DNA of 64,000 bases from a virus. How positions within the stretch are numbered: the first letter of the stretch is position 1; every line of letters starts with the position of its first letter. Positions 2,249-53,712 of the stretch are shown here, one piece after another. The stretch covers positions 43,395-107,394 of the IMG/VR virus record IMGVR_UViG_3300015263_000944. The stretch is one strand, 5' to 3'. The position numbers and the translations under genes were made by a program. The notes below the pieces were generated by a model, which saw nothing but the letters and a program-made list of their open reading frames with translations, searched no databases and had not been told where the DNA came from.

Positions 2249-3541
2249 TTATGCGGCTTCTCCCCGTGACTCGCAGACGATCTTCTTCTCGCCTTTGACC
2301 ACAGACTCATCGATCACAATCTTCGCCGCTTTCGGGTTGGATGGCAAGTCGAAGTGAATGTCAGTCATCAGATCTTCCACCACACTCCGAAGAGCACGAG
2401 CCCCAGTGCCGAACTTGTGAGCCTTCTCGGCGATCATTCGCAGAGCACCATCTGTGAACTCCAGATCGAGCCCACTGTAGGCCAGCTTCTTTTCCTCTTG
2501 CTTGATGAGAGCGTTCTTCGGCTCGCTGAGCACCTGCACCAGATCGTCCACACTAAGTTCTTCGAGTGTGGCGATCACCGGCAGACGACCACACAATTCG
2601 GGGATCAGCCCGAACTCCATCAGATCGTGGTGGGTACATTGGGCCAGCAACTCGTTCTTCTCTTCGTTCTTCTCTTTGGTGGGTTGCTGTCCGAAGCCCA
2701 TCGCCCGGCGATTCATTCGCTTGCCGATGATGTCTTCCAGACCGTTGAATGCCCCACCGACGATGAAGAGGATGTTGGTGGTATCGATCTGGATGTATTG
2801 CTGCTCGGGGTGCTTTCTCCCACCCTGCGGAGGAACATTGGAGACGGTGCCTTCGATCATCTTCAGCAAGCTCTGTTGCACGCCTTCGCCACTCACGTCA
2901 CGAGTGATGCTGACGTTGCCACCAGTACGACCAATCTTGTCGATTTCGTCGATGTAGATGATTCCAGACTGGGCGGCGTCGATGTCGAAATCGGCAGCGA
3001 CGAGAAGTTTGAGGAGCAAATTTTCCACATCTTCGCCAACGTACCCAGCTTCGGTGAGGACGGTGGCATCACCGATGGCGAACGGAACTTGGAGCTTCTC
3101 GGCGAGGGAGCGGGCCAGCAGAGTCTTGCCGCTCCCTGTCGGGCCGATCAACACGATGTTCGACTTTTCGATTTCCACATCCTGCAACTCCTTACGCTTG
3201 ATGAGCGGAGTTGTATGGCCGTACCGCAACTCGCCGTCGATGAGACGCCGATAATGGTTGATGACCTGAACTGAGAGCTTCCGCTTCGCTGCATTCTGAC
3301 GGATCACATACTCGTCGAGATGCTCGTAAACATCTCGGGGCGAGGGGAGAGATTCCATCTGAGAGATGAGCGTAGGCTGACGAGACTTGCGTTCCTCTTG
3401 CTCGATGGCTTCATCGCAATTGGCGATGCAGTTCTTGCAAATGTACACACGGGCCTCATCGCCGTAGGCTTTGCCTTCGACAAGGGGGCCGACCTTGTTC
3501 TTGTCGCCCCCACAAAATCCACACTTGGGTCGTGTCTTCGC
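2249..3541 (-). CDS. clpX: ATP-dependent Clp protease ATP-binding subunit ClpX
   Basis: N-terminal C4 zinc finger (CGFCGG...CKNC). Walker A GPTGSGKT, and the typical ClpX sequence through the C-terminus. GAGGAGG lies 5 nt before the ATG at 3541; the longer ORF start at 3571 is less likely. Confidence 0.9.
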
Positions 3542-3601
3542 CATAAGTTCCTCCTCTGCTGGGCTTTTCATTGCCGTCTTCCCGTCAACATCATTATAGA
3601 G

Positions 3602-3607
3602 AGTTTC
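3602..3607 (-). promoter_or_regulatory. Possible -10 element (TATAAT on minus strand) upstream of clpX
   Basis: Perfect TATAAT about 60 nt upstream of the clpX ATG. No convincing -35 was found. Confidence 0.2.
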
Positions 3608-3674
3608 TCATCTACATTTTACGGCTAATCTGAGGCAGTGTAAAGCAATTCTCCGGTAGATGTTAGGGTGAAGT

Positions 3675-4493
3675 TTACCGTGGGTGGCGGTTATCCGTTT
3701 CCTGATCCAGCCTCTCAGAAAGTTCGTCGAATTCCTCTCTACTTTGTATTGACACCAATCGTCGCTGAATGTCGGAAATCATTCGAGCCGACGCCTCAAC
3801 ATCGTGGGGCGAGACTGCTGGCGGCTCATCGCCGGTCACTGTTCGGTATAGATCCTGAAGCTGACGATGCCCCTTGGCCGCTCGAATCTCTTGTTCCGCA
3901 GCCATTGCAATGAATGCTCCGATCACAACCAACATGAAGCGACCAGACATGATTCCCACAATAGCGAATCCAATACAGCCCACTTGACCAATTCGACCAG
4001 CGACAACTGTTGCCCGCTCATGATTCTTCCATATCATCGACAGAAGAGACCTCAACACTCTACCACCATCCATTGGAAAAATTGGCAATAGGTTGAAAAG
4101 CAGAATCGCAATGTTGATATAACAAAGCGTGGCAAGGACTGTGTGGACACTTGCCGAGAACCACAATGGGGCAATCAAGAGAGCGTTGACCAGCGGTCCA
4201 GCAAGAGCAACAACAAACTCTTGTACCGGCTCAACAGGCAGTCGCATTCGGGCCGCACCACCGAACGGATAGAGGGTGATGCTATGGGGCTCGATCCCAT
4301 ATCTTTGTGCCGCAATGCAGTGTCCAAATTCATGCAGCAGGACAATGAAGAAAGCCCCGGCATAAACGGCGGCGAGATTCCCGCCACCAGCAATCAACAC
4401 AAAAAGAAAAAGAAGTACCCAACTCCAATGCAGAGTTACGGGGACACGAAACCACCTACCCAGTGGAATGTTGAGATAGTTCAGAAATTTCAT
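3675..4493 (-). CDS. Site-2 protease family (peptidase M50) zinc metalloprotease
   Basis: HEFGH motif inside a TM helix. Multiple TM segments and a C-terminal soluble domain. Confidence 0.75.
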   Translation of the reverse strand: MKFLNYLNIPLGRWFRVPVTLHWSWVLLFLFVLIAGGGNLAAVYAGAFFIVLLHEFGHCIAAQRYGIEPHSITLYPFGGAARMRLPVEPVQEFVVALAGPLVNALLIAPLWFSASVHTVLATLCYINIAILLFNLLPIFPMDGGRVLRSLLSMIWKNHERATVVAGRIGQVGCIGFAIVGIMSGRFMLVVIGAFIAMAAEQEIRAAKGHRQLQDLYRTVTGDEPPAVSPHDVEASARMISDIQRRLVSIQSREEFDELSERLDQETDNRHPR

Positions 4494-5514
4494 TGGAATC
4501 CGTTCCTTTATTCAGGAGAACCCTCTTGGTCTCCAAATACTCTTTCCATCGATTCATAATGTACCGATGGTTGTGCTCAAATGTCGCTTGCACGTCGATC
4601 TGTCCTTCCTTGTGGACTTCGTTGATCGTCTTGTTCTGATAGTGGTACACCAGTGGGATGTACAAAGCGTAAATCTTATGGCCTGCTTCCATCAGGCGCA
4701 AGGACAAATCAGCATCCTCACAATATGCGAACTTCAATTGTTTGTTGAACAAACCGAATTCGGCATATGTGGTTTTCCGCTCAATGCAGAAACACCAGCC
4801 CGGAATATAATCAATTTCGGCTCCGTTGTCACCACCAAATCCCCGACCATCTGAGCTTAAATGCCCACCCCAAAAGCCTACCTGACGGTAATCTGGGTTG
4901 TTTTGCAAGAAGCCAAGCATAGCAGTATCCCAATGCTCAAAGACTTTGGTATCAGAATTCAGCAGGATGATATAATCTCCGGTGCCAACCTCGGCCAGCC
5001 TGTTGTTGGGTTCGATGAACCCCATATTGGCATCCATCGTCCAAACTTCTAAGCTCCAATCAGGGTTTTCAATGCTGAGGAATTCTGCTTGCAGCCTCTC
5101 AATGTATTGTTTTGTCTCTGGCCCGGAATCATTATCCCAGATGTAAAGTGTGTAGTTGTGCGTGTGTGCTCGGACAGATTCAATGCACTGCTTGAAGTAT
5201 TCTAACTGGTCACGAACAACGATGATGATGTCCTTCCATTTGTTCTCAGCCATCACTGCTGCTTTAAGTTCAGCCTCCATCTCCTTCTTCATCTCATCAA
5301 GTTGACCAGCACGGGAATGCTCTCTGGCCTGCCGCCAGATCTTGTTGCCGCATTCTTCGCTGCACACATGCTTCTGCAACTTCACATCAATCCAACGTGT
5401 GAAAGAACCACACTCAAAGCATTGGCCGAGTTTGGGATCACGAGTCACAAACGAGTATTCGAACTCGATTCGTTCGGTGGGCGCAGTGTCAGGGTATTTA
5501 ATCTCGAATTTCAT
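4456..5514 (-). CDS. Family 2 glycosyltransferase with N-terminal zinc ribbon
   Basis: CFECGSF...CSEECGN zinc ribbon followed by a GT-A domain with IWDNDSG and CEDADLSLR motifs. Start placed at MKFEIK (5514) to limit overlap with the upstream gene. Confidence 0.75.
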   Translation of the reverse strand: MKFEIKYPDTAPTERIEFEYSFVTRDPKLGQCFECGSFTRWIDVKLQKHVCSEECGNKIWRQAREHSRAGQLDEMKKEMEAELKAAVMAENKWKDIIIVVRDQLEYFKQCIESVRAHTHNYTLYIWDNDSGPETKQYIERLQAEFLSIENPDWSLEVWTMDANMGFIEPNNRLAEVGTGDYIILLNSDTKVFEHWDTAMLGFLQNNPDYRQVGFWGGHLSSDGRGFGGDNGAEIDYIPGWCFCIERKTTYAEFGLFNKQLKFAYCEDADLSLRLMEAGHKIYALYIPLVYHYQNKTINEVHKEGQIDVQATFEHNHRYIMNRWKEYLETKRVLLNKGTDSNEISELSQHSTG

Positions 5515-5872
5515 CAGAGCCTTTCGGGAGCACCAGCCAACTCTTATACCCCATCGTGAGGTAGATGGCCTGCTCTTCAAGAAGGGAGCACATTTCAGAC
5601 AGGAATTGAACGAAGGGCTTTACGTCGCCATGAAAACTGACTTCATAGCGGGCGTTTTGATCCTTGAAGATCGGATCTTCTGGGTGCCGACGCCAATACC
5701 CTTCGATGGCACTGGTTTCCAGCGTGTAGGCATCGAAGCTCGTCATCAAAAACTGCTCGAACAGTTCTCGTGGCGTCTTTCCATCCTTGCCGTGATCAAC
5801 CGAATCCAACTTTTGGACCGGGATATAAAACACAGCCACATGCCCGAGGTAAATAGCGTCAATCTCATCCAT
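5498..5872 (-). CDS. Hypothetical protein
   Basis: 124-aa ORF collinear with its neighbours. Confidence 0.45.
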   Translation of the reverse strand: MDEIDAIYLGHVAVFYIPVQKLDSVDHGKDGKTPRELFEQFLMTSFDAYTLETSAIEGYWRRHPEDPIFKDQNARYEVSFHGDVKPFVQFLSEMCSLLEEQAIYLTMGYKSWLVLPKGSDEIRD

Positions 5873-5886
5873 GAACTATCAGAGTA

Positions 5887-6750
5887 TCACTCGGAGGGAT
5901 TCTCTTCCTCTGCCCTCTCTGCTTGTTCTTGTTCTTTGGCGGCGTCTTCAGCTTCCGTGGTGCCCGTCGCCTTATCCATTTCGGCGATCACAGCACGCTC
6001 CTCCTTCACCTTCTTGAATTCCTCAAAAGGATCGAGGTTCGGGTCGGCTTCTTCTGCAAAGACTTGATCAAACGCTCCTGTGATGGCAGAGAAGCACGCC
6101 ATCACAACCGCCAGACCAGCGATCATAAATCCCATGACGATTACCCGCCCGGCTGCTGTCTGCGGGGAGAGATCACCATAACCAACCGTCGTAGCAGTAA
6201 CTTCCAAGAACCACGAAAGCGTGAAGAGGTTGCGAAATTCGGGTTGAGTCGGTCCCTCTACCTCATACAGAGCAAAGAGGGTGAACAACAGAATGATTCC
6301 CGTCATGAAAAGCAATGGTCGCAAATTGAACCATGCTCGATAGAAACCAAGGGCAACCAGTTGCAATGACCGGTTGTATCTGAAGAACTTCAACATGCGA
6401 AGCACACGCAATGTGCGAACCAAGTGAAGATAGGGCCGCAGTATCGGCAGGAACCCAATCCAGAAAGGCAAGATGGAGATCAAATCGATCATTCCAAATG
6501 CTGTGCGGGGATAAAACCCACGCCCAGAGTTCCGCCACCAGCGGAAGGCATATTCGACAGTGAAGATCAGAGCAACAATTCGCTCTGACCATAGAAAGAA
6601 GGGATGACTTCCTCTACTGTCGGTCTCTGGATACATGTGGCATTCAACAGCCAACATCGCCACGCTGTAAATCACCAATGGCTTGACAATCAGGTCGATC
6701 TTATCGATGACCCATTTCGTGGCATCCATTCGGTCAGTGCTGATCTCCAT
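5887..6750 (-). CDS. Voltage-gated potassium channel (6TM, Kv/KvAP-like)
   Basis: Six predicted TM helices. S4 segment LVRTLRVLRMLKFFR has basic residues at every third position. Pore helix plus the TVGYGD selectivity filter. Acidic cytoplasmic tail. RBS GGAAGAAGG lies before the ATG. Confidence 0.85.
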   Translation of the reverse strand: MEISTDRMDATKWVIDKIDLIVKPLVIYSVAMLAVECHMYPETDSRGSHPFFLWSERIVALIFTVEYAFRWWRNSGRGFYPRTAFGMIDLISILPFWIGFLPILRPYLHLVRTLRVLRMLKFFRYNRSLQLVALGFYRAWFNLRPLLFMTGIILLFTLFALYEVEGPTQPEFRNLFTLSWFLEVTATTVGYGDLSPQTAAGRVIVMGFMIAGLAVVMACFSAITGAFDQVFAEEADPNLDPFEEFKKVKEERAVIAEMDKATGTTEAEDAAKEQEQAERAEEENPSE

Positions 6751-6760
6751 AACCTTCTTC

Positions 6761-7021
6761 CTATTGGTTAAGCAAAGCCGCCCGCTGTATCATCGCTGTC
6801 GCCATGATCAAAACCCACATTGCCGATAACACCCAATTGGGCAACATAGCAGCTTGTGCATGATGCCATTCCGCTAAAGCGTAGAGCACTGCTGGAAACA
6901 CTGACAAGATCGCAACGGCAGCACAGGTCTGCGGCGATGGAGTGGCGGCTTTGACGAGAATTGCTACAAAACCGATGATCGCAGACAGGGATGCGAGAAA
7001 GTGTAACATTCGGGGTTCCAT
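6761..7021 (-). CDS. Small membrane protein
   Basis: Two or three hydrophobic helices. Start taken at MEPRML. Confidence 0.4.
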   Translation of the reverse strand: MEPRMLHFLASLSAIIGFVAILVKAATPSPQTCAAVAILSVFPAVLYALAEWHHAQAAMLPNWVLSAMWVLIMATAMIQRAALLNQ

Positions 7022-7059: not shown

Positions 7060-7926
7060 TCAAGCCGGATAGGTAAAGACGACTTCCTCCCCAAGTTCAG
7101 AATTGGGATCGTGGATATTCATGAAATCCGGGGCAGTACACAAATCAAAACCAGATAGGCCCATCGCCGCAAATGCCCTGTCCAATACTGGTTTTCGCTC
7201 TCGCAATTCGTCGGCCTGTAGCAAATGTTTCAGATGCAAACACATTCGGTGGTGATGATGTTCATAGGTGTTTCCGCCGTGGAACACATAGACATAATGA
7301 TGCCCTTCGTTCACGCCCACAACTGATCCACTCTGCATCAACTTCTGAAGAACATTGAGATCTTCTTCTCGATCACTTTGGTATCCAAACTCTGGATAGA
7401 GAAAACTTCGAAATTGATGGAAGCAGCTTTTTCGGAACATGACCGATCCGGTCAAAAAGCGTTTGTACGGTGATTGTTGAAGGATGTCCATGTAGCTCTC
7501 TGGGCCACGGGTATAATCTATCCAATACATTCTCCCTGTATTCTTGAAGTATTTCAGGTGTTGAGTGTAAAGGCTCGCCACGGCACGTCCACGAAGATGC
7601 TTGAACTGCGTCATCAGTCTGTCGGGATGATAAAAATCATCGTCATCCCACTGGCAAATGATGTCACCGGTAGTCAACTCAATGGAAACATTACGCATGG
7701 CACCCAGAGAAATGTTCGAGGGAGCTTCTATGAAGATCGCTCCTTTAATGGCACTCACCATCTGACGAATGGTTGCATTCCGCTCGGCTGTTCCTTGCGA
7801 AACCACCACGAGTTCTTTGTTCGCATAAGTTTGAGCCTCAAAACATCGAAGTGCGCCGCCAATCAGGTCATCCCGACCTGTGGTCACAGTAACGCAACTG
7901 ATTTTGGGTGGTCGTTCAAAGATCAT
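7060..7926 (-). CDS. Family 2 glycosyltransferase
   Basis: PKISCVTVT N-terminus and a QWDDDD DxD motif. Paralogous to the next gene. Confidence 0.8.
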   Translation of the reverse strand: MIFERPPKISCVTVTTGRDDLIGGALRCFEAQTYANKELVVVSQGTAERNATIRQMVSAIKGAIFIEAPSNISLGAMRNVSIELTTGDIICQWDDDDFYHPDRLMTQFKHLRGRAVASLYTQHLKYFKNTGRMYWIDYTRGPESYMDILQQSPYKRFLTGSVMFRKSCFHQFRSFLYPEFGYQSDREEDLNVLQKLMQSGSVVGVNEGHHYVYVFHGGNTYEHHHHRMCLHLKHLLQADELRERKPVLDRAFAAMGLSGFDLCTAPDFMNIHDPNSELGEEVVFTYPA

Positions 7927-8741
7927 GATTCCCTCTCATATAAGAATGCCAATCCCTCTCTGCCCATGACGGTGATCTTGTCTGCCAATTGCAGATGATC
8001 GAGCGTTCGACAGATGCGGTTGCGATGTTTGATCATGAAAGGAATGGTCATGCTACGATGCGTCGAAATGACTTGATGATGCTGGATGTCCCAGACGTTT
8101 TTTCCATGGAAGCTGTAGACATGCAAGTATCCCTTGTCTCTCAAAAGAATCACCTCAGTCTTTTCGCACAACTGATGAGCGAGCACAGAATCTTCACCGG
8201 CTGAGGCAAACGTGCCCGCTGAAGGATATCGAGCGGGGAAGCCTTCTTTGTACGCCATAATGGTGCCGGGTATCAATGAGAACTCTTGCACCTGACCGCT
8301 CAGGAAATGTTCCCAGTTCTCCCAATACAACTGTTGCGTTGGGAAGTAGTAATGCAGTTGATCGGTGAGATAGCAGACACGGGCGTTGGTGTGTTTGGAG
8401 AGATATGCGTACTGGGTCGCCAATCGCTCTGGCATGTTAAAGTCGTCATCATCCCATTGCACAAAGAGATCGCCATGACAAAGGGCGATGGAGATGTTGC
8501 GTAAAGCCCCGAGCGTGTATTTGCCGTCCAAGAAGATGAATCGCACATCTTCACGTTGCCCAACACACTCTCTGATTTGCTGTTGATACTGAAGAGACCC
8601 CTCATTGACGATCACCAATTCACGATTGGGATATGTCTGATTGAGGTAGCACTGGAAACTTCTGCGAAAGTATTCAATGCGCCCGTTGGCTGTGACCAGC
8701 AAGCAACTGATCTTCGGATATGGCCTATCGATGTGGAACAT
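7923..8741 (-). CDS. Family 2 glycosyltransferase (tandem paralog)
   Basis: PKISCLLVT and QWDDDD motifs. ATGA overlap with the downstream paralog. Confidence 0.8.
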   Translation of the reverse strand: MFHIDRPYPKISCLLVTANGRIEYFRRSFQCYLNQTYPNRELVIVNEGSLQYQQQIRECVGQREDVRFIFLDGKYTLGALRNISIALCHGDLFVQWDDDDFNMPERLATQYAYLSKHTNARVCYLTDQLHYYFPTQQLYWENWEHFLSGQVQEFSLIPGTIMAYKEGFPARYPSAGTFASAGEDSVLAHQLCEKTEVILLRDKGYLHVYSFHGKNVWDIQHHQVISTHRSMTIPFMIKHRNRICRTLDHLQLADKITVMGREGLAFLYERES

Positions 8742-17965: not shown

Positions 17966-18199
17966 TTAGTAGAGACGCTGGTTGCAAACCGTGATTGCTG
18001 CAACCCATGCTTCCGACCGTGTGCTACAAAGCTGGTTCAATTTCGGGCAACTCACCCGAAACTTCCGCCATGTTGCACATGTGTAAATCGGCTGGGCCAT
18101 CGCATCTTCACCCTTCAAACAGTAAAGCTGAATGTTAGGGGTATCGTCTGCAAATGTGCCCTTGCACTTATTCGCTGAAACAGGTGTAACTGCTGCCAT
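17966..18199 (-). CDS. Small Cys-rich protein
   Basis: GGGAGG RBS 4 nt before the ATG at 18199. 77 aa with six Cys residues. Confidence 0.4.
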   Translation of the reverse strand: MAAVTPVSANKCKGTFADDTPNIQLYCLKGEDAMAQPIYTCATWRKFRVSCPKLNQLCSTRSEAWVAAITVCNQRLY

Positions 18200-18256
18200 A
18201 ATTCCTCCCGGATCGAACAATGTAGATCACATCTATCTATTCGTCTGGGAGGTATT

Positions 18257-19072
18257 TTACGAGAGCTTCTTCAGGTCTTCGATGCACCGCTTGCGGTTCT
18301 CTTTCTCCATGATGTCTCTCGTCGATGGGTTTCTTCGCCACAACTCTTCTATCGTGACGGCCCCATCGTGATGAACCCAACTGTTGCGACACACCGCCTG
18401 CTTGAATCCATATGAGTTCAATCGGGCACCAAACTCTTGATCCTCGTAGAAACCATACGGGTAGTTCTTCAAGAAACCACCGCAACGACGAAATAACTCT
18501 CGGTGGCACATGAAGCAATACAAGCTGAGGTACTCGTCTTCTTGCAAGATGTAAGGCTCTGGGTTTCGATCAAACCGGTCGCCTTGCTGTTCTGGGTGTC
18601 CGCCCACGGCATTGTTGGTGATTGGACAAACCATACGGACGCCCTGATCCTTGTAAGCCAACAATGTCTCTCCCATGGTTCGCAGCCAACCTGAGTCTTC
18701 AATCTTACAGTCTGAATTGATGAAACAGACATAAGGACTCTCTGTACTCTCGTAACCCAACTGACACGCTCCAGCAAAGCCCAGTTGTTCTGGAGAGCGA
18801 ACCGTCTTAACGACATTGGCGATTTTGCGAATCTTTGCTGCCTTGTCGGAGTTCCTCTGCATAACCTTGATGAACTCTTCGTTGGGAGACGCATCGTCTA
18901 CTATGCACACTTGATAGTAGTTGCTGCGAGTGAGACGGAAAATCGTCTCAAGAAGGGTAGTGACTTTCTGATATTGTCCGTGGAAGGGGATGATGATGTC
19001 AACCTGTGAATGAAAATCACTCACACTGTTCACAGGTCTCGAAATCACTTCCGGTGTCGTATTCTGATCCAT
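18257..19072 (-). CDS. Family 2 glycosyltransferase
   Basis: QVCIVDDASP DxD motif and GT-A N-terminal region. Confidence 0.75.
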   Translation of the reverse strand: MDQNTTPEVISRPVNSVSDFHSQVDIIIPFHGQYQKVTTLLETIFRLTRSNYYQVCIVDDASPNEEFIKVMQRNSDKAAKIRKIANVVKTVRSPEQLGFAGACQLGYESTESPYVCFINSDCKIEDSGWLRTMGETLLAYKDQGVRMVCPITNNAVGGHPEQQGDRFDRNPEPYILQEDEYLSLYCFMCHRELFRRCGGFLKNYPYGFYEDQEFGARLNSYGFKQAVCRNSWVHHDGAVTIEELWRRNPSTRDIMEKENRKRCIEDLKKLS

Positions 19073-19544
19073 ACTTCAAACACTCCTTGATCTGGTCTGC
19101 GATGCTGGCAACATCCCTGATTTGGATCACATAAGCCTCAGATGGATCGATCTCGTGAATTGGGGCATCTCCAATCGACAATACCACCAGCTTACAATCG
19201 ATCATCTCTCTTTCTTGGATTTTCGCTAAGCGATGAATGGGGCCGGGATCAAATCTGTCTGTGATGAGCACAAGGTACTTTTGGAAGCCCTCATTCTCAG
19301 CATCTAAGACGTACAGAGTTTGCTGCAACGCATAATTGATGTTGAACTTCCACCCGTCTGTCTCGAAATTGGAGACAGCCCCTACTTGTTGGCCGATCCG
19401 AGTCATTGTCTCGACGATCTCAGGATGAAACAGGTAGAAGATGTCGTCATCGTCGAATGTGTCTCTCAGATATTCGATCAAGCCCTGCTTGGCATGATCG
19501 AGAACTCGACGGCCATCAGCCGCATGTCTCAAGGACACGTCCAT
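19017..19544 (-). CDS. Hypothetical protein (possible VWA-like fold)
   Basis: YLVLITDRFDPG segment. Start taken at MDVSLRH. Confidence 0.4.
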   Translation of the reverse strand: MDVSLRHAADGRRVLDHAKQGLIEYLRDTFDDDDIFYLFHPEIVETMTRIGQQVGAVSNFETDGWKFNINYALQQTLYVLDAENEGFQKYLVLITDRFDPGPIHRLAKIQEREMIDCKLVVLSIGDAPIHEIDPSEAYVIQIRDVASIADQIKECLKYGSEYDTGSDFETCEQCE

Positions 19545-20379
19545 TACTACGCCCAGCACCTTTGAGTCCCAAGTTGTGATTTCCATGGATCAACTCCTTT
19601 CTGATCTTTCTGTGTTCTTCCCGAAATGGATGGTCGTAGTTCTTCAACGGGTGCATGATGCTCGCATCTGGGAACTCCTCGGTTTCGGGATTTAGCTCGG
19701 GTCGCCATCGCACAGGATAGTATTGGTAGGCACCGTGCCACCGACCCATCTCATCATATGAGGCCAAGACACCGATGTTGCCGCCGAAGTGGCGACACAG
19801 AGAAGGATAGAGATGCTCGCTTACATCATAACCAGAGTAACACGGCATGTAACCTTCTGTGAATTCGTTGGTTAAGTTGAGGAATCGGTCGAAGAAATCG
19901 ATCTCATACAACTTCCTCAAATACTTGTTGCGGAAAAACTGACAGCACCCCAACAGGTAGTAACTTTGCTTCAAGGGCTCGCCCACAAGAGAAGATACCA
20001 GCGGTAAAGTGACTTCATCCACATGACCGTCATTGCCCAGCATCCACACATCCATCTCATCTGCCATCAATAACTGAGACCTAATTCTTGAAGATGTGAA
20101 GAGGACATCATATTCCGTGTAGCAGTACCAGTCCGCTTCAGGGTTCGATTCGTAGAGGCACTTGAGGCCCAATGCCACATTTCGATAAGGCGATTTTGGG
20201 CAACCGTGCTTAAAGCCAACCACGGAAGGAACCGGGAGATCGAAGTCCTTAAACTTCGATTCACTCGCCCCATCAATCAAAACGAGGACATCCCGAGTCA
20301 GATAACAAAAAATTGACTCAAGCGTATCTATAATAACCTTGTCTGGCGTGTGGACGTTCAAAAGTGCAGCGATCTTCAT
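19516..20379 (-). CDS. Hypothetical protein (possible glycosyltransferase-associated)
   Basis: 287-aa ORF in the GT-rich cluster. No firm motif. Confidence 0.45.
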   Translation of the reverse strand: MKIAALLNVHTPDKVIIDTLESIFCYLTRDVLVLIDGASESKFKDFDLPVPSVVGFKHGCPKSPYRNVALGLKCLYESNPEADWYCYTEYDVLFTSSRIRSQLLMADEMDVWMLGNDGHVDEVTLPLVSSLVGEPLKQSYYLLGCCQFFRNKYLRKLYEIDFFDRFLNLTNEFTEGYMPCYSGYDVSEHLYPSLCRHFGGNIGVLASYDEMGRWHGAYQYYPVRWRPELNPETEEFPDASIMHPLKNYDHPFREEHRKIRKELIHGNHNLGLKGAGRSNGRVLETCG

Positions 20380-20408
20380 GAACTGATAATAGCGAAACGA
20401 GAGACAAA

Positions 20409-21317
20409 ATGGCCGATATCGAAAAACTTAACCAATCCATCGAACGGGCTGTCCAGTCTCTTCTGGACCTCAAAAAGACCCTGAACACAGAGTTCCAAGA
20501 GACCCCGATCCAAGCCCAAGCAACCCCCGAACCAACCGATTCCCTCGACAGTTTTGACAGTCTGGAACGTGCCGTACACAGCAACAAATGGCCTGCGGCA
20601 GTCAATCCCAACCTCATCTGCGACCCAAAATCCGAATCAGATCAGGTGGAGCGTGCTCGTGGGATCATTGAACTGATGATCGAAGAAGATCTGAAGGACA
20701 AGAAGTTCCTCGACTATGGTTGCGGACCCGGATATGTCGCTCGACTCGCAAAAGACTATCAACCAAAATCAACTGTTGGTTTTGACCTGCAACACAACAA
20801 CTGGGACAACGTAGACGGAGTTGTATTTACGAACGACTTCAGCATCGTCCAACATCACGGACCCTATGATGTCATCCTGCTTTTCGATGTACTTGATCAT
20901 CTGAAAGCCGAACCTCCTGTGGCTGTCTTGAAGAAAGCCAGAGATCTACTATCAGACACCGGCAAGATCTACATGAGGTGTCATCCATTTACATCGAGAC
21001 ACGCAACTCACTTGTACAACACTTTGAACAAGGCATACTTGCATCTGGTGTTTACCGACGAAGAACTCAAGCGACTGGTGCCAGAACCGTTGAATCCAGA
21101 GCACAACATTGGCGTCGTTTATCCCATCAAGACATATGGCGAATTCATCGAGCAAGCCGGATTGAAGATACTGAGCCGACGAGATCTCACAGAAAAGGTG
21201 GAGAACTTTTTCAAGATACCGAAGATCGCAGAACGAATCATGGACAATACAAAGTTTGCAAGCTTCCCTGATTTCCAGATGAGCCTACAGTTCATTGACT
21301 TTGTTCTAGGAAAGTAA
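20409..21317 (+). CDS. Class I SAM-dependent methyltransferase (paralog 1 of 3)
   Basis: Motif I LDYGCGPGY. Shares WPAAVNP and HPFTSRHATHLYNTLNKAYLHLVF blocks with the genes at 24750 and 26573. Confidence 0.8.
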   Translation: MADIEKLNQSIERAVQSLLDLKKTLNTEFQETPIQAQATPEPTDSLDSFDSLERAVHSNKWPAAVNPNLICDPKSESDQVERARGIIELMIEEDLKDKKFLDYGCGPGYVARLAKDYQPKSTVGFDLQHNNWDNVDGVVFTNDFSIVQHHGPYDVILLFDVLDHLKAEPPVAVLKKARDLLSDTGKIYMRCHPFTSRHATHLYNTLNKAYLHLVFTDEELKRLVPEPLNPEHNIGVVYPIKTYGEFIEQAGLKILSRRDLTEKVENFFKIPKIAERIMDNTKFASFPDFQMSLQFIDFVLGK

Positions 21318-21759
21318 GAAACTCGCCTTCACTTGTCTCTACAAATGACCCGGCATTCTTAAAGTATCTCACGCTTTTGAATGCCGGGTATTTTATTTGA
21401 TACCACTTCTGGAACATCCCACGATGCTGCTCAAGATCAGCAACCGGCACCCTGTACTGAGCGATAATTTCCTCGTAATTGGCATAAAGAACATAGCAGG
21501 TGACGCCTCCCGGCAGAAATTCTCCCTGTTCGTCTCCTAGATGCCAGCCATCTAGTACAAATTTTGGATTCGCCTCACAGACAGATTTCACCTCCTGCAT
21601 CGCCGCCTCAAAAGACAACCCCAGAGTTTCCATCATGTGCCAAGGAAAGAGGGCATCAAAACAGATATAAGGTCGTGGGATCTGTTGGGCGAACGTGGTT
21701 TTACCCACACATGACATTCCCCAAATCACGATTCTGTCAGAGTGTTCTATCATAACCAT
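21292..21759 (-). CDS. P-loop kinase-like protein
   Basis: RIVIWGMSCVGKTT Walker A. Start set at M63/M65 because the upstream part overlaps the conserved N-terminus of the divergent GT2 gene. Confidence 0.5.
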   Translation of the reverse strand: MVMIEHSDRIVIWGMSCVGKTTFAQQIPRPYICFDALFPWHMMETLGLSFEAAMQEVKSVCEANPKFVLDGWHLGDEQGEFLPGGVTCYVLYANYEEIIAQYRVPVADLEQHRGMFQKWYQIKYPAFKSVRYFKNAGSFVETSEGEFLTFLEQSQ

Positions 21760-22446
21760 ATGATATCGATCATCACCGTAAATTGGAACAGCTACGACTT
21801 CCTCGAACTCCTCATTGAGTCCCTTGAGCGATTTTCCTACTTCCCCTACGAGTTGGTTGTCATTGACAACAGCATCCAGAAACGCACCGTCAGCCGACGA
21901 TGTGTTAAGTGGGTGCCACAGACCGACAACATTGGGCACGGGCAAGGACTTAACGAAGGAGTCAAAGAATCACATCCCCAATTCCCTTATGTGATGTTCT
22001 TGGATGTAGATGTCCACATGCTTCAATATCAATGGGAAGAGCCGTTCGTCACACATATGGCTCAGTATGATGTGATTGGAGCCAAGGGCGTGCCAGAGAA
22101 ACCAATCAGGCCCGCTTGTATGTTCATGAAGAGAGATGTCGCTGTGCGACACGATTGGCAGCCCACCCCCGGTTACAAAGGACACCGAGTCACCCCAGAC
22201 GGATATGATGTGGCAATTGCGGCCTATCACAACATGGTTAAGGAAGGAACTAAGATTGCCTTCATGGGCAGTTACCCCAACCGCTATGGCACGCTCACTG
22301 GAGAAGAGTGGGGAATCGAAGGAGAACCATTGGTCTACCACCATTGGCACGGCAGTCATCTGGCCGAAAGGCAAGTGGACTTTGACACAAACCTCGAAAC
22401 AGAAAAAGAAAAACTGTTCTCACAGATTCCTTGGAGATTGCCGTAG
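21760..22446 (+). CDS. Family 2 glycosyltransferase
   Basis: MISIITVNWNS, ELVVIDNS and GHGQGLN motifs. Alternative GTG start at 21742. Confidence 0.75.
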   Translation: MISIITVNWNSYDFLELLIESLERFSYFPYELVVIDNSIQKRTVSRRCVKWVPQTDNIGHGQGLNEGVKESHPQFPYVMFLDVDVHMLQYQWEEPFVTHMAQYDVIGAKGVPEKPIRPACMFMKRDVAVRHDWQPTPGYKGHRVTPDGYDVAIAAYHNMVKEGTKIAFMGSYPNRYGTLTGEEWGIEGEPLVYHHWHGSHLAERQVDFDTNLETEKEKLFSQIPWRLP

Positions 22447-23274
22447 TTCTTCCACCCTCTTCTTGATGTATGCTCGGGGATTTCTGATCGCTGATTCGTA
22501 TGCCAAATTCTCTGCGATGATTAAAGGCAGATCCCACTTCAAGCAATACAAAACGAAATTGTCTAGCGATTTTTGCCAAAGCTCAACATCAGAAAGAGCT
22601 TTGTTGCCATCTCGCTTCTTGTGCGGCCAGTGTAGTTCAGGAACTTGCAAATCCACAAACTGACATCCTCCCACAGCAGCCGCATAATGGAAGTCTGTGT
22701 CGGCGTAGGCACCATGTCCGCAGTATGAGTGATCGACTCCTCCCAATCTGAGATAGGTGCTTTTTGTGAAAGCAGTGCTACCAGACATGACATTCTTGCC
22801 GGGCCGATGAATTGGGTCGCCATATCGAGCCTCAAAGCGAAGGCTCCCCATGAATTTCTCGTCCAAGAACACACCTTCTTCGTTCATGCTTTTCAAAAAC
22901 AACTTGCAGTCTTCAATAGACATTTCCTTGAGCATCTGGAAGTGGCTTGATGTGAAAACGAATACATCATCCTCAACAGCCGCCAAGACACGCTTCAGGA
23001 AATCGGCAGGAAGCAATCTGTCGGAGTCCAAATAGAGAACCTTCTCGTACTGGGCCGTGCAAACCCCAGCATCCCACATTCTCCCCCAACAGAACTTGTC
23101 GGCCACTCTGGGAACTTGGACATACTCCCACCCTTCTCGGAGGCGGTCAATTCTACCGTCAACCACGATGGTTTTCTGGCATACATCGTAAAACTCCATC
23201 TCTCTGAGACAAGACAAAGTGGCGTCCAAAGCCACCTCTCTGTCCGTCGAATACATTATGAAGATGCTGAGCAT
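22420..23274 (-). CDS. GT-A fold glycosyltransferase (DxD family paralog 1 of 3)
   Basis: YLDSDRLLP DxD block. Paralogous to 28971..29789 and 39164..39928. Confidence 0.6.
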   Translation of the reverse strand: MLSIFIMYSTDREVALDATLSCLREMEFYDVCQKTIVVDGRIDRLREGWEYVQVPRVADKFCWGRMWDAGVCTAQYEKVLYLDSDRLLPADFLKRVLAAVEDDVFVFTSSHFQMLKEMSIEDCKLFLKSMNEEGVFLDEKFMGSLRFEARYGDPIHRPGKNVMSGSTAFTKSTYLRLGGVDHSYCGHGAYADTDFHYAAAVGGCQFVDLQVPELHWPHKKRDGNKALSDVELWQKSLDNFVLYCLKWDLPLIIAENLAYESAIRNPRAYIKKRVEELRQSPRNL

Positions 23275-23311
23275 GGCTGATTTTTCCTCTCGGTGATCGC
23301 TACATACTTAC

Positions 23312-23950
23312 ATGAGAAGCTTCAAGGAATTTTTCGAACAACAATTGCAAGAAGCATCCCCGCCAAATGCCAGAATGGGCTCTCCATTGAAAGCAGGTGG
23401 CATGGGGACAGGTCTGCAAACCGGATCGGGTATTAACTTCCCATCAATGGGCATTGGAGCCATGCCGCTTACCGGCCCTCAAAGTATGGGACAGTGGCTT
23501 CAACACTACAGCAAACCACACGAAGCCCCAGAATGGAAACTTCTCGATAGTGCAGCCAGAGCAGCACAGAACATCGGCAACGCTGTCAGTCAGGGATCAA
23601 AGGAATGGGGTTCGGGCGCATATGTGACAGGAACTCCTGATCGTGGCGGCAAGATCATGAATCTTCAGAAAGACACCTTGCTCCATAGCGGCGTAGCCCG
23701 AGGATACCAGTTCTCGCCAGCCGAACTTCAATGGCTGCAAGACAAAGCCATCATTATCCCAGATCAAGCGAACCCACAACTGGTTCATCTGGATATGGGC
23801 AAACTCTACACAATGATGTTGGAAAAGCAACGTGGGCAGGAACTCAAGTATGGTGCAGCACAGGCTTACGACATGATCGCTGGTCGCATGGCTAATGGTG
23901 GCCCGATGTCGAATGCCGGAACCAACCTTGATCCATTTGGCGTTCGCTAA
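23312..23950 (+). CDS. Hypothetical Gly-rich protein with SFKEFFEQQ N-terminal motif
   Basis: 212 aa. Its N-terminus resembles those of the proteins at 51206(-) and 41744(+). Confidence 0.5.
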   Translation: MRSFKEFFEQQLQEASPPNARMGSPLKAGGMGTGLQTGSGINFPSMGIGAMPLTGPQSMGQWLQHYSKPHEAPEWKLLDSAARAAQNIGNAVSQGSKEWGSGAYVTGTPDRGGKIMNLQKDTLLHSGVARGYQFSPAELQWLQDKAIIIPDQANPQLVHLDMGKLYTMMLEKQRGQELKYGAAQAYDMIAGRMANGGPMSNAGTNLDPFGVR

Positions 23951-24753
23951 AAGATCATCGTCGCACTCTGAAGTGGATTCTGCTTCATGTACCACTGCCA
24001 AAACTCATGCACAGCGTCTCTGGCTTCGATCTTGTAGTCTTTCTTCTCCAACGTCTTAGATTTGTTTTCGAGTGGTGAAGTGATACCATCGATCATCCCC
24101 GCAATACAATGCAGGTAGTCTTCGTTGTCTGTCTCAATGAACTTCTGCACAAAGAAATCGAAGTGTGCTTTGGCCTTCTGAACAATATCGTTTCCACCCA
24201 TAAACGCACCGCTGTCCCACTCGAAGTTGTGAGATCTGTACGTCTGGTAAACATCCCGATACTTGTAATAGCAGAAATGACGACCCTGAACCCGATGCTC
24301 GCCTATGGGACGGGTTCTGAGATAATCGTGGATGCAAGTGTATCCCGCATCTGTGAGTCTCTGATAGTGCTCAACATCAGGGGTGGCACTTTCCTTAAAC
24401 ATGTGCTCTTGGGCTATCTTGGTACGCAAAACCTTTAAGGCCAGAATGGGACGGTCGGTGAGCGTATCGTGCAACCGGAACAAAATCGAGTGCCAATGTG
24501 GGTTGCGAAAATGCTTGCGAATGGCATTGGTGATACGAGGCCACGCATCATGGTGAAGTACGATATCTGCATCCAATGGAACAAAATACTCAGTCTTGAC
24601 GCCGCTCACCATTTGATTGAGTGCTTCAATCTGAGGATACACATTCCTCACCTCAAAGAACTCAATCTCGCTCCTGAATGGTTCAATGGCAGCGAGACAG
24701 TCTGGCTCCGAGAGTTCGCCACAAGTCATCAATACAAAGGTTACTTCATTCAT
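23947..24753 (-). CDS. Hypothetical protein, possible GT-A-like
   Basis: VPLDADIVL DxD-like block. Confidence 0.4.
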   Translation of the reverse strand: MNEVTFVLMTCGELSEPDCLAAIEPFRSEIEFFEVRNVYPQIEALNQMVSGVKTEYFVPLDADIVLHHDAWPRITNAIRKHFRNPHWHSILFRLHDTLTDRPILALKVLRTKIAQEHMFKESATPDVEHYQRLTDAGYTCIHDYLRTRPIGEHRVQGRHFCYYKYRDVYQTYRSHNFEWDSGAFMGGNDIVQKAKAHFDFFVQKFIETDNEDYLHCIAGMIDGITSPLENKSKTLEKKDYKIEARDAVHEFWQWYMKQNPLQSATMIF

Positions 24754-25772
24754 TTGGGTGACAGAACGAAATCAACGAACTGCAACTTCATCGAGTCGAT
24801 GAAATTGTCGATGTCCTGTTTCGCAATTCCTTGCTCATTAGCCAATAAGTCCTTAAAGGCTGGCACATAGAAAAACTCGCTGACCGGCTCTTCCAACGGG
24901 CATTCCTTAATGATGTTGAAGTCTTTCTTGAACCAGTTGTGATATGCGGTGATTGGGTACTTTTCTGGTCGAGTAAATGTCGGTGGTTCGCCGAGAAGAG
25001 TTTTCATTTCCTCCCAAGTGAAAAACAGATGGAGATAGGCTTTATTGATGCCTTTCTTCCAAAGATGTGTGGCGTGTCTTGAGGTCCATGGGTGACACCG
25101 AACATAGACAACACCATCATCTTTCACACACTCCCGGACCTGCTGCATCACCTCTTCCGGCTCAAAAGCGTGATCTAAAACATCATACAAGAACACGATG
25201 TCGTATTGGTGTTTGGGAACCTCATTGTAGACGCTAGTGAATTGTGCTCCACCATCGAACTCTTCCCAGTTGTCATTGGGGGTATTGTCATAGCCGGTGG
25301 CAAGAGCACATCCTCGCTTCAACGCCTCATTGGCAATCCAACCTTCCCCGCATCCAAAATCTAAGAGACGTGCGCCGCTCAACCCTCTGTCCAACATCAT
25401 ATCGAGCACAGCTTTTGCTCGTTTGACCTGATCTTCCTTGGTGGGGCCACACATCAAATGCTGGGGCACGGCTTCCGGCCAACAGTCAATGTCCAACAGA
25501 TCTTGGAGGTGCTTCTTCCGAGCCGTCTGATGGGCCACAGAAGGGGCTGGTTTGGCGGGCGGTGCCGCTGGCTGTTGGTATTCGGCGGCAGGCAAAGCTC
25601 TTGGAACCTCTGGCTCCGAGATCATCTCTTCCAACAGTCCGCCGTCGTCATTGTCCAACATACCCTCAATCAAAGAGACGGCTCGCTTGATCACGGACAA
25701 ATATCTTCTGAGTTCTTTTTGGTTCACATCACCCTCTTCTGTGTTTTCATAACTTCGCAATACTGGCCCCAT
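24750..25772 (-). CDS. Class I SAM-dependent methyltransferase (paralog 2 of 3)
   Basis: LLDFGCGEGW motif I plus HPWTSRHATHLW...KAYLHLFFT. Confidence 0.8.
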   Translation of the reverse strand: MGPVLRSYENTEEGDVNQKELRRYLSVIKRAVSLIEGMLDNDDGGLLEEMISEPEVPRALPAAEYQQPAAPPAKPAPSVAHQTARKKHLQDLLDIDCWPEAVPQHLMCGPTKEDQVKRAKAVLDMMLDRGLSGARLLDFGCGEGWIANEALKRGCALATGYDNTPNDNWEEFDGGAQFTSVYNEVPKHQYDIVFLYDVLDHAFEPEEVMQQVRECVKDDGVVYVRCHPWTSRHATHLWKKGINKAYLHLFFTWEEMKTLLGEPPTFTRPEKYPITAYHNWFKKDFNIIKECPLEEPVSEFFYVPAFKDLLANEQGIAKQDIDNFIDSMKLQFVDFVLSPK

Positions 25773-26554
25773 TGATGATGGTTCGGAATTCGATTGGCCT
25801 GTGTGAAATGGATGCCCTGCTCATTCCCAGACAGCTTAGTACGGAAGTCCCGATGAAGAACTTCTATCATCTGGCTGGGCTTGATCCGAACGCTGGGTTC
25901 GAGACTCAGTGTGTAAGTCAGCAACCCCTGCTCATCGGCTTGTGAGAGATTCTCAAAAGAGCCGTGAGCCTCCCACTGCTCCTTGATCCGGGCACCAAAG
26001 TTGTATCCGGGAGGAAATCCCATAAATCCCGAGTTCAAGAAAGGCGGGTCTTGTGGAAACAAATGATCGTAGCGGCCATAGAAACGAATCGGTTCCTCTA
26101 AGATGAGCACTCGGTCACGTTGACCAAGCCACTCTTCTATTTGTGGGAACTTTTGAAGCAGAACAACATCGTTGTCTGCGACAATCTCGTGAGTTTCCAT
26201 CCGCAATCTAGGAGGACAGACCTTCCACATTGTCCCGCCACAGCGTTTCCCGTCATACTCGAAAGATCCATCTTGGCGGCGTGGAGTCTGGCAATTGTCT
26301 TTGACCGGACAAGTGGCCCAGTTCTGAGCCACCAGCTTGACGGGAAGTTCTCCAATCCGTTCTCTTAGAAAACCAACTTCATCCCCATTCAAGCCATTGT
26401 AGCAAACAGCCCAATCCCAATCATTTACCCCAAATGCCTGTGTGGTTCTGTGAATTGATTCAACGAGAATGTCCAGACCTTGCTGTAAACAATTACCTAC
26501 GGTCCATCGAAACAAAGGCTTTGCCATAACGAATCTTCCTCCTGTTACTATCAT
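25724..26554 (-). CDS. GT32-like (Gly_transf_sug type) glycosyltransferase paralog A
   Basis: LFRWTVGN start, ADNDVVLL DxD, GFMGFPPGYNF and GIHFTQAN blocks. Paralog of 28285..28974. Confidence 0.55.
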   Translation of the reverse strand: MIVTGGRFVMAKPLFRWTVGNCLQQGLDILVESIHRTTQAFGVNDWDWAVCYNGLNGDEVGFLRERIGELPVKLVAQNWATCPVKDNCQTPRRQDGSFEYDGKRCGGTMWKVCPPRLRMETHEIVADNDVVLLQKFPQIEEWLGQRDRVLILEEPIRFYGRYDHLFPQDPPFLNSGFMGFPPGYNFGARIKEQWEAHGSFENLSQADEQGLLTYTLSLEPSVRIKPSQMIEVLHRDFRTKLSGNEQGIHFTQANRIPNHHQWGQYCEVMKTQKRVM

Positions 26555-26572
26555 AGTTTCGGGGTACGCAGA

Positions 26573-27568
26573 ATGCTGACACTAGAAAAAATCAACGAGC
26601 TTACACAAGGAATCGAGTACCATCTCAGAAAGCTGGAGAGCTTTGAGAGTGGACTCCGAGAAGTTAAGGCCGCTCTTGAAGAACTCAGACACGCCAAAGA
26701 ATCAGAATATCTCTGGGAGCTTCAGAAATACCGTGCCGATATTGAAGACATACGGCACCAACTGCGAAAGCGTGGGCTCCCGGATGCTGAGAAATACGAA
26801 ATCCAGTTCCGTAAGATCAAAGATTCACTCAACGAACACCAATGGCCTGTCGCCGTCAATCCAGAAGCCATCTGTAACGACGATGAGCGAGCCACAATTC
26901 GGGCTGAGTCAATTCTGGACCTCGTTGTTGGCGAACATCTCCAAGGCAGAAAGTTCCTCGACTATGGATGCGGTCAAGGCCATGTTGTACAAGCGGCTAT
27001 AAGCCGAGGAGCAATGGCAATTGGCTATGACATCAACGCCCAAGGGGAAGCGACCAACAACTTCGAGGATGTCAAAAAGCACGCACCTTTTGACATCATT
27101 TTGATGCACGACGTGTTGGATCACATTCAGAGCCTCAACCCCATGGAAGCCTTAGCCCAAGCAAAATCGGTGCTTGCTCCAGAAGGACGCATCTATGTCC
27201 GTAATCATCCGTGGTCATCCAAGCATGGCGGACATCTGTACGAACACATCAACAAAGCATATCTCCATCTGATCCTCGACGAAGTAGAGTTGACCCGGCT
27301 AGGAGGATTTGCCTGCGAGTACAACATCCGTGTCGTCAGGCCGCTGGAGACTTACCGTCATTGGTTTGACAGCGTTGGCCTTTCTGTAAAATCCGAGATT
27401 CCCATCAACAGTAATGTTGACGAATACTTTAAGAAGCCATCCTTTGTTCACGAGCGTCTATTGCATAACTGGGAAGGGGATGAGGCCGCAATGTTGTTCA
27501 ATATGGGAATTGACTTTGTAGAATACATCGTCGAATCAGACGGCATCTCAAATCAACAGATATTTTGA
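26573..27568 (+). CDS. Class I SAM-dependent methyltransferase (paralog 3 of 3)
   Basis: LDYGCGQGHV motif I plus HPWSSKHGGHLYEHINKAYLHLIL. Confidence 0.8.
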   Translation: MLTLEKINELTQGIEYHLRKLESFESGLREVKAALEELRHAKESEYLWELQKYRADIEDIRHQLRKRGLPDAEKYEIQFRKIKDSLNEHQWPVAVNPEAICNDDERATIRAESILDLVVGEHLQGRKFLDYGCGQGHVVQAAISRGAMAIGYDINAQGEATNNFEDVKKHAPFDIILMHDVLDHIQSLNPMEALAQAKSVLAPEGRIYVRNHPWSSKHGGHLYEHINKAYLHLILDEVELTRLGGFACEYNIRVVRPLETYRHWFDSVGLSVKSEIPINSNVDEYFKKPSFVHERLLHNWEGDEAAMLFNMGIDFVEYIVESDGISNQQIF

Positions 27569-28270: not shown

Positions 28271-28284
28271 GGTATATTAAAGCG

Positions 28285-53592: not shown

Positions 53593-53663
53593 GTACCCCC
53601 TAGAGGAGTCGAACCTCTTCTAAAACTTTAGGAAAGTCTTGTGCTTCCGTCACACTCAGGGGG
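53593..53663 (-). tRNA. tRNA-Arg (anticodon CCU)
   Basis: Manual cloverleaf fold. Acceptor GCCCCCT/AGGGGGT. D arm GTGT-GACGGAA-GCAC. Anticodon stem AGACT/AGTTT with loop TTCCTAA. T arm AGAGG-TTCGACT-CCTCT. Discriminator A. 71 nt without CCA. Confidence 0.65.
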
Positions 53664-53712
53664 CTCGGAATGTTGCATTGTAACATATCTAGCCGAAACA
53701 CTAAATATCTCT

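Follow-up and report, generated by a model that had tools for sequence, protein, structure and literature searches.

Minimal voltage-gated potassium (Kv) channels with six transmembrane segments (6TM) are represented among prokaryotes by KvAP, KvLm from Listeria and MVP from Methanocaldococcus, and to our knowledge the role of prokaryotic Kv channels is still poorly understood. The known viral K+ channels are mostly Kcv-type proteins with two transmembrane segments (2TM), as a preliminary description of the DNA studied here had stated; this is true of the characterised channels and of the BFVD structure set, and a 2025 review of viral K+ channels mentions neither a phage channel nor a 6TM viral channel. 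We have analysed a 64-kb stretch of DNA (referred to in full as the window), which occupies positions 26,175-90,174 of the 100,747-bp Joint Genome Institute (JGI) contig Ga0247387_10000286; with its flanks, approximately 82 kb were covered. Both sequence and fold confirmed that positions 5887-6750 of the window encode an intact minimal six-helix Kv-type channel. On balance, we favour the view that this is a Planctomycete-type Kv channel, which was probably acquired once by a sub-lineage of giant phage-like elements and may be kept for the control of K+ and membrane potential.

The channel gene and its parts are located as follows:

5887..6750, minus strand: channel coding sequence, ATG at 6750, stop at 5887-5889, 287 aa; supported by Pfam, PDB, AlphaFold2 (AF2) and Foldseek.
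6753..6762, minus strand: Shine-Dalgarno-like AGGAAGAAGG, read from the sequence, 2 nt upstream of the channel ATG.
6376..6711, minus strand: voltage-sensor domain S1-S4, approximately residues 14-125, from the AF2 helices; E56, F63 and E66 in S2, D89 in S3.
6376..6447, minus strand: S4 helix, residues 102-125, with R112, R115, R118, K121 and R124, and R127 just beyond.
6049..6372, minus strand: pore module, residues 127-234, with S5 (running on from a short S4-S5 link), the pore helix, the filter and S6, from AF2 and Ion_trans_2.
6172..6192, minus strand: selectivity filter TTVGYGD, residues 187-193; the reverse complement is ACGACGGTTGGTTATGGTGAT.
5890..6054, minus strand: cytoplasmic C-terminus, with the post-S6 motif EEADPNLDPFEEF (residues 233-245; 6016-6054) followed by an acidic tail.

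The preliminary description had called this open reading frame (ORF) a complete 6TM Kv gene with S1-S4, a pore helix, a TVGYGD filter, S6 and an acidic tail, and the ORF itself, Pfam, PDB, AF2 and Foldseek all agree with that description. The Pfam family Ion_trans (PF00520) matched residues 25-229 with an E-value of 2.7e-23 (82.9 bits against a cut-off of 25), and Ion_trans_2 matched residues 155-226 (E 1.3e-12). A sequence search of the PDB returned Kv4.2 and Kv4.3 as top matches (E 2.8e-21) and also matched Kv2.1, Kv1.x, Shaker and MlotiK1. Chains 6uwm, 2a0l and 1orq, which are listed as potassium channels and which we take to be KvAP, matched with E-values between 1e-17 and 1e-15; for the Listeria protein Lmo2059 (PDB 4h33), presumably the KvLm pore, the E-value was 2e-8. 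The matches to KvAP-type chains, together with the conserved voltage-sensor and filter residues, bear out the KvAP/Kv-like character that had been proposed for the protein. The AF2 model, built with an alignment of 63 homologues as input, reached a mean predicted local distance difference test (pLDDT) score of 91.9, and its helices (residues 5-39, 50-73, 84-100, 102-125, 127-165, 175-188 and 199-234) make S1-S4, S5, the pore helix and S6 all visible. When this model was submitted to Foldseek, the top 50 hits were Kv structures, with Kv4.2, Kv1.2, Kv2.1 and Shaker leading; the best E-value was 1.7e-9, TM-scores reached 0.77, and Kv4.2 (7uk5_A) was superimposed with a root-mean-square deviation of 3.3 Å over 241 columns. 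The topology and structure modelling that had been suggested as a check of the gene, and the accompanying comparison with Kv channels, thus agree with the first description.

Residue conservation was counted across 123 relatives of the channel, all five element-borne copies among them. The S4 string LVRTLRVLRMLKFFR, on which the first description had relied, is present at residues 110-124, and TVGYGD is present at residues 188-193. Residues R112, R115, R118, K121 and R124 of S4 align to the R-R-R-K-R pattern of Kv4.2, with R127 as an extra charge, such that basic residues recur at every third position. The S2 motif IFTVEY, which gives F63 and E66, is identical to that of Kv4.2, and the IDxxxILP motif of S3 (IDLISILP in the channel, containing D89) is aligned residue for residue; F63, E66 and D89 make up the gating charge-transfer centre. 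E66, D89, K121, R124 and R127 are invariant (123 of 123 relatives), R112, R115 and R118 are kept in 120-122 of the relatives, and position 63 is occupied by phenylalanine in 101, leucine in 20 and methionine in 2. Within the filter, T188, V189, G190, G192 and D193 are invariant and Y191 is found in 122 of the 123. S6 has G212 at the Kv hinge position and the PVP motif is absent, as in prokaryotic Kv channels, and the protein is without a T1, RCK or cyclic-nucleotide domain. The 40 C-terminal residues are acidic. In the post-S6 motif, EExDPxxDPxxEF, P241 shows no variation and 121 of the relatives keep P237; this motif marks the channel subfamily across bacteria, archaea and phage-like contigs. 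With every key residue conserved, the possibilities of a pseudogene or of a degenerate sensor were rejected. The upstream ribosome-binding site noted in the preliminary description was likewise found, in the form of the Shine-Dalgarno-like sequence listed above, and Shine-Dalgarno-like cores lie ahead of 24 of the 79 window ORFs as compared to 8.5% of background positions.

Bremerella, Rubinisphaera and other Planctomycetes encode the nearest named homologues of the channel, which are chromosomal 'ion transporters' and share 63-69% identity with it. The homologue P0029 (70% identity) lies in a typical Planctomycete chromosome context of AspRS, TsaD, VWA and DUF1559-type genes, and the chromosomal homologues are located on contigs of 6-8 Mb. 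A neighbour-joining (NJ) tree groups the element-borne copies with those of Planctomycetes in a single clade (bootstrap values 84-100). Among the syntenic relatives of the window, the channel is encoded by L004 (ENA ctg84252, 693,098 bp; channel 80% identical), L005 (a Logan contig of 139 kb; 74%), L091 (an ENA contig of 55 kb; 71%) and L009 (IMGVR_UViG_3300029258_003221, 234,631 bp; 65%). The same backbone without the channel is found in L008 (IMGVR_UViG_3300023179_000009, 458,813 bp), L007 (IMGVR_UViG_3300042197_004429, 177 kb), and L172 and L173 (a JGI contig of 613,260 bp and an ENA scaffold of 664,448 bp). A further record, the distantly related LR756511.1 (GenBank 'uncultured phage', 595,163 bp, unannotated), has 20 of the 79 window proteins in common with the window and no channel. 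Host-to-element capture of a Planctomycete-type channel would be the economical reading, because the channel family is broadly chromosomal across bacteria and archaea, yet the gene is absent from half of the lineage and from LR756511.1.

Comparison of substitution rates within the conserved block suggests that the captured gene has been retained. Because synonymous divergence (dS) was saturated, the ratio of nonsynonymous to synonymous divergence (dN/dS) was not computable and only the ranking by dN was used. The channel displayed the lowest dN of the block (0.17-0.27), as compared to 0.34-0.43 for ClpX, 0.25-0.47 for Prs, 0.31-0.57 for the GT2 genes and 0.51-0.55 for the M50 protease. Similarly, the channel is 80% and 74% identical between elements in which ClpX is 62% and 57% identical and a ParB-like protein 44% and 43% identical. 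That the channel is the slowest-evolving protein of its block argues that the gene is being maintained, and is kept under purifying selection.

The genes on either side of the channel are located as follows:

6761..7021, minus strand: 86-aa hydrophobic ORF with about three transmembrane segments, directly upstream of the channel and overlapping its ribosome-binding site; from the JGI gene call and hydropathy.
5498..5872, minus strand: 124-aa soluble ORF, 14 nt downstream of the channel, the backbone slot beside the channel insertion.
2249..5514, minus strand: downstream backbone, a tightly packed run of a GT2 gene (4456-5514), an M50 intramembrane protease (3675-4493) and a ClpX-like ATPase (2249-3544), from Pfam.
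7060..8741, minus strand: upstream backbone, two GT2 glycosyltransferases (7060-7926 and 7923-8741), from Pfam; kept in all relatives.

The slot has the order GT2-GT2-channel-(124 aa)-GT2-M50-ClpX in five elements, and the downstream backbone is syntenic with L004, L005, L009, L091, L172 and L173. The 124-aa protein, which had no Pfam, PHROG or PADLOC match, is 71% identical in L004, 61% in L091 and 62% in L173, which retains it in the same slot although it lacks the channel. The 86-aa ORF gave no tblastn match in the related loci and occurs only in the window's copy of the block. Trees of the backbone ClpX and GT2 proteins are each compatible with a single split between channel-plus (five) and channel-minus (four) elements, the nodes that define this split having bootstrap values of 41-65% only. 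Because both backbone trees fit one split and L173 keeps the 124-aa neighbour, the arrangement indicates one single-gene gain (or loss) of the channel next to that neighbour. The M50 protease was considered as an obligate partner of the channel and was rejected, because it is also present in the channel-less L172, L173 and LR756511.1. Mobile insertions break the block in some members: the Prs gene of L007 (11883-14101) is in two pieces approximately 1 kb apart, and in L091 (3604-5876) the surroundings of FolD and Prs include a Y1 transposase and two HNH genes.

The carrier of the channel belongs to a lineage of giant, densely coding elements. A greedy ORF call gave 81 ORFs in the 64 kb (1.27 genes per kb, 91% coding), most of which are orphans. 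The gene content of the approximately 82 kb includes ClpX, the M50 protease, many GT2 genes, sulfotransferases, methyltransferases, a ParB-like gene, radical-SAM enzymes and UvrD, in addition to the phage-type genes for two endonucleases VII, an HNH endonuclease, a dTMP kinase, an RF-1 domain protein and one tRNA-Arg. Syntenic relatives of 693,098, 664,448, 613,260 and 458,813 bp come from four different assemblies, the largest being the 693-kb contig, and the GC content of lineage members ranges from 29% to 61%. The phage genome size record stands at 735 kb, and the lineage contigs of 613, 664 and 693 kb come near it. At least ten relatives are present in IMG/VR, namely L007, L008 and L009, which are syntenic with the window, and seven further contigs that encode a homologue, 73-97% identical, of a 169-aa protein found in the 459-kb relative. 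The ParB-like backbone marker was found in 107 metagenome clusters, among which the longest contigs listed do not exceed 0.67 Mb, and it was absent from GTDB, represented by one genome for each of 185,579 species.

Relationship to GenBank phages was further examined through LR756511.1, which had come to light through a ClpX match. About a dozen of its genes, by one count eleven, follow the gene order of the window (HNH, nucleotidyltransferase, methyltransferase-like, two unknowns, FolD, Prs, M50 and ClpX); the collinear core lies, for example, at 193,145-213,889 of the record. One large protein of LR756511.1 gave a weak match to a baseplate hub. With the exception of this match, its large ORFs at 516-575 kb matched nothing in GenBank phages, and they had no match in the PDB; a phmmer search of the record with two sheath proteins gave no match either. 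Megablast of 25 kb against GenBank phages returned no match, nor did tblastn of the ParB-like, 268-aa and 434-aa proteins. Tail sheath and terminase-like matches in L177 (IMGVR_UViG_3300042923_001771) were rejected as hallmark evidence for the lineage, because L177 is a Bacillus phage G-like contig (it has a gp156 homologue of 70% identity as well as the tail sheath) that has a single protein in common with the lineage. This protein, approximately 45% identical, may reflect gene exchange between huge phages that are otherwise unrelated.

Several other features of the carrier were observed. A glycan-modification island at approximately 18000-30000 contains several GT2 genes, sulfotransferase-domain proteins and three paralogous methyltransferase-like genes (20409-21317, 24750-25772 and 26573-27568), and the IMG/VR relatives of 459 and 177 kb conserve it at 50-65% identity. 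The tRNA-Arg (anticodon CCT; 53593-53664, minus strand) is immediately upstream of a 1152-aa Laminin_G_3 protein (53641-57099). The RF-1 domain protein carries an RF-1/PCRF domain. The load of cell-like genes, unusual for a virus, also takes in the M50 site-2 protease, the dTMP kinase, an acyl-carrier protein and a dTDP-sugar isomerase.

Channels with a voltage sensor are encoded by other phages as well. The PHROG family phrog_7872, annotated as 'unknown function', matched the channel at E 1.2e-28 (residues 19-251 against positions 16-238 of a 254-position profile), and tblastn located channel relatives in 11 GenBank phage records, PLE2 and Dulem virus 33 among them. S4 of Lactobacillus phage PLE2 gp27, an 'ion transporter' (L089:3842-4621), contains seven R/K repeats and its filter is TTVGYGD, while the protein of Dulem virus 33 (L090:3854-4561) has an arginine-repeat S4 and a TTMGYGD filter; both are complete temperate phages in which the channel lies between the repressor region and the integrase. 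Channel relatives are encoded by at least 95 stretches in IMG/VR. IMG/VR contigs with a channel of the same subfamily include L010 (340 kb), L014 (408 kb), L013 (99 kb) and L015 (120 kb), and L013 has a tail sheath gene (phrog_23, E 5.5e-82) 5 kb from its channel as well as a tail tube gene. The BFVD matches to the channel, by comparison, were pore-only proteins of 82-149 aa, none of which reached E 1e-3 or extended over S1-S4. Our search of the literature found no paper on voltage-sensor-bearing (Kv-type) phage channels, those of PLE2 and Dulem virus 33 included; the viral K+ channel papers that it covered are concerned with miniature 2TM Kcv pores from algal viruses. An S4-bearing K+ channel in a phage is consequently an existing but unstudied category, to which the window gene adds a well-conserved member on an unusual carrier. 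The novelty implied by the preliminary description was overstated, because PHROG 7872, PLE2 gp27, Dulem virus 33 and the IMG/VR relatives precede the window gene.

The most likely role of such a channel would be to control the membrane potential of infected cells and their flux of K+. In the sequence of events that we propose, a sub-lineage of giant phage-like elements (approximately 0.46-0.69 Mb) would have acquired the channel once, between two glycosyltransferase genes. The protein would tetramerise in the cytoplasmic membrane of the infected cell, where S4 would move with voltage and open a K+-selective pore. The resulting element-controlled K+ conductance could keep membrane potential and K+ balance steady, or restore them, over a prolonged infection, and a clamp toward the potassium equilibrium potential (E_K) could preserve the proton-motive force after entry-induced depolarisation or host shut-off. 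In this respect, the channel would work like other host-derived auxiliary genes. A more specific version, in which phages of approximately 0.6-0.7 Mb, which would rank with the largest known and some of which would infect Planctomycetes, captured a host Kv channel for electrical control of the infected cell, is put forward tentatively, as a possibility that we would not yet lean on. If true, it would provide the first voltage-sensor-bearing viral ion channel with a defined role, and together with the S4 channels of temperate phages it would make voltage-gated K+ conductance a recurrent phage tool for takeover or exclusion. The presence and absence of the gene among syntenic giant elements offers a natural comparison set for the phage use of voltage-gated K+ flux. 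The compact 287-aa protein, a candidate under selection, also bears on what prokaryotic Kv channels do.

The nature of the carrier has to be weighed before any role is assigned to its channel, and several results stand against a phage-borne channel captured from a host. Pfam and PHROGs searches that covered nearly every ORF of the approximately 82 kb detected no capsid, terminase, portal or tail gene, and none was detected in 38 kb walked on the 459-kb relative, these stretches being a minor part of genomes of 0.5-0.7 Mb; the 38 kb held only ATPases, a carbamoyltransferase, an RNA ligase, a transposase, an SNF2 helicase and a UvdE-like endonuclease. The cell-like genes Prs, FolD, ClpX, NDK, PTH2, CsrA and that of the RF-1 domain protein are present, and JGI contig Ga0247387_10000286, which bears the window sequence, was not found in IMG/VR. 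A promoter and terminator scan of the channel locus gave no signal above shuffled controls, and the NJ tree resolves neither monophyly of the element-borne copies nor the direction of transfer (internal bootstraps 5-50). One explanation of such findings is that the contig is a bacterial chromosome with an ordinary Planctomycete Kv gene, as the chromosomal 'ion transporters' of Planctomycetes that are its closest named homologues and the several housekeeping-like genes nearby might suggest. The true chromosomal context (L006), however, is wholly different, with long genes, AspRS, TsaD and DUF1559-type proteins, whereas the window has mostly orphan ORFs at the density given above, and genes for HNH endonuclease and endonuclease VII; GTDB lacks the backbone marker, which is on no listed contig above 0.7 Mb, as opposed to the 6-8 Mb contigs of chromosomal channels, and syntenic relatives are present in IMG/VR. 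We therefore regard a chromosomal origin, which the preliminary description had named as the finding that would undo it, as largely refuted and highly improbable. A non-viral giant extrachromosomal element (a megaplasmid or Borg-like element) or a very reduced cell of approximately 0.65 Mb, with the channel as cargo, deserves more consideration. It would account for the missing capsid, terminase and portal genes, for the ParB-like gene and the many cell-like genes, and for three independent contigs of 613-693 kb; yet at least ten relatives are classed as viral in IMG/VR, LR756511.1 is a phage record with synteny, 20 common proteins and its own weak baseplate-hub match, no ribosomal proteins or rRNA were seen in the approximately 120 kb examined, and the genes that were seen include homing endonucleases, endonuclease VII and an Rnl1-like RNA ligase. 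This explanation is in our judgement unlikely, and the carrier is probably a phage, although that label is unproven because no capsid or terminase was seen for the lineage. Of the phage-like genome first described, the non-chromosomal nature is largely supported, with relatives in IMG/VR and LR756511.1, while no capsid, terminase or portal gene appeared in the stretches covered.

Even on a phage, the channel could serve purposes other than that of holding the potential of the infected cell. It might be a weapon, namely a superinfection-exclusion factor, a depolarising switch of the abortive-infection type or a device for the timing of lysis. The S4/TVGYG genes of PLE2 and Dulem virus 33 occupy the classic moron position between repressor region and integrase, and membrane depolarisation is the mode of action of lambda RexB and of many defence effectors. 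The window channel, in contrast, lies in a glycosyltransferase/protease block with no repressor or integrase adjoining, and its 63-70% identity to the host channel and retention of every gating residue fit a preserved native function. In addition, a search of PADLOC-DB 2.0 (5,027 models, E 0.01) returned no match for the channel, for its two small neighbours or for the channels of PLE2, Dulem virus 33 and L013. A weapon is an improbable, though not a negligible, explanation. Far less credible still is a channel of the virion membrane that depolarises the host at entry, as does Kcv in chlorovirus PBCV-1. Although no other viral K+ channel mechanism has experimental backing (references in PMC9405923), the window protein has a full voltage sensor, unlike Kcv, and phages that encode a tail sheath and a tail tube (L013) have copies of the same subfamily. 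Tailed virions have no internal membrane, and a Kcv-like virion channel is unlikely for such particles.

Among known channels, the protein resembles the minimal Kv channels of prokaryotes. Like KvAP, KvLm and MVP, it is a 6TM protein in the range of approximately 260-300 aa with TVGYGD and no T1, RCK or CNBD domain, a basic residue at every third position of S4, and an S6 glycine hinge without PVP. MVP demonstrates that the same architecture is able to open on hyperpolarisation. The channel differs from KvAP in the identity of its pore (approximately 34% by BLASTP with a hand-entered KvAP query), in the FRY(S/N)RSLQ after S4 and EExDPxxDPxxEF after S6 of its subfamily, and in being carried on a giant phage-like element. 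The eukaryotic Kv4.2, Kv1.2 and Kv2.1 (Shal/Shaker type) are its best sequence and structure matches and have IFTVEY and the S4 pattern R-R-R-K-R in common with it; unlike them, the window channel is about half the size and is without T1, the PVP gate motif and auxiliary-subunit sites.

Among viral proteins, the Kcv-type channels of chloroviruses, phycodnaviruses and Tetraselmis virus, and some pore-only proteins of 'uncultured Caudovirales', resemble the window channel in being virus-encoded and in having a K+ filter, a pore helix and two pore helices. They are nevertheless 2TM proteins of 82-149 aa with no voltage sensor, as opposed to 287 aa with S1-S4. PHROG 7872, PLE2 gp27 and the Dulem virus 33 protein are phage-encoded 6TM proteins with an arginine-repeat S4 and TT(V/M)GYGD. 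Their identity to the window channel is 24-31%, and they reside in the lysogeny modules of 35-40 kb temperate phages with Firmicutes-type hosts, whereas the window gene is of Planctomycete type and resides in a glycosyltransferase/protease block. The channels of L010, L013, L014 and L015 have the FRYSRSLQ and DPxxDP motifs in common with the window channel at 39-45% identity, but no other gene within 10 kb on either side is common to these contigs and the window, and in the tree they fall outside the Planctomycete-type clade, beside mostly unnamed metagenomic sequences. This placement, together with the lack of other common genes nearby, suggests that the channels of these four contigs are independent captures of the same subfamily.

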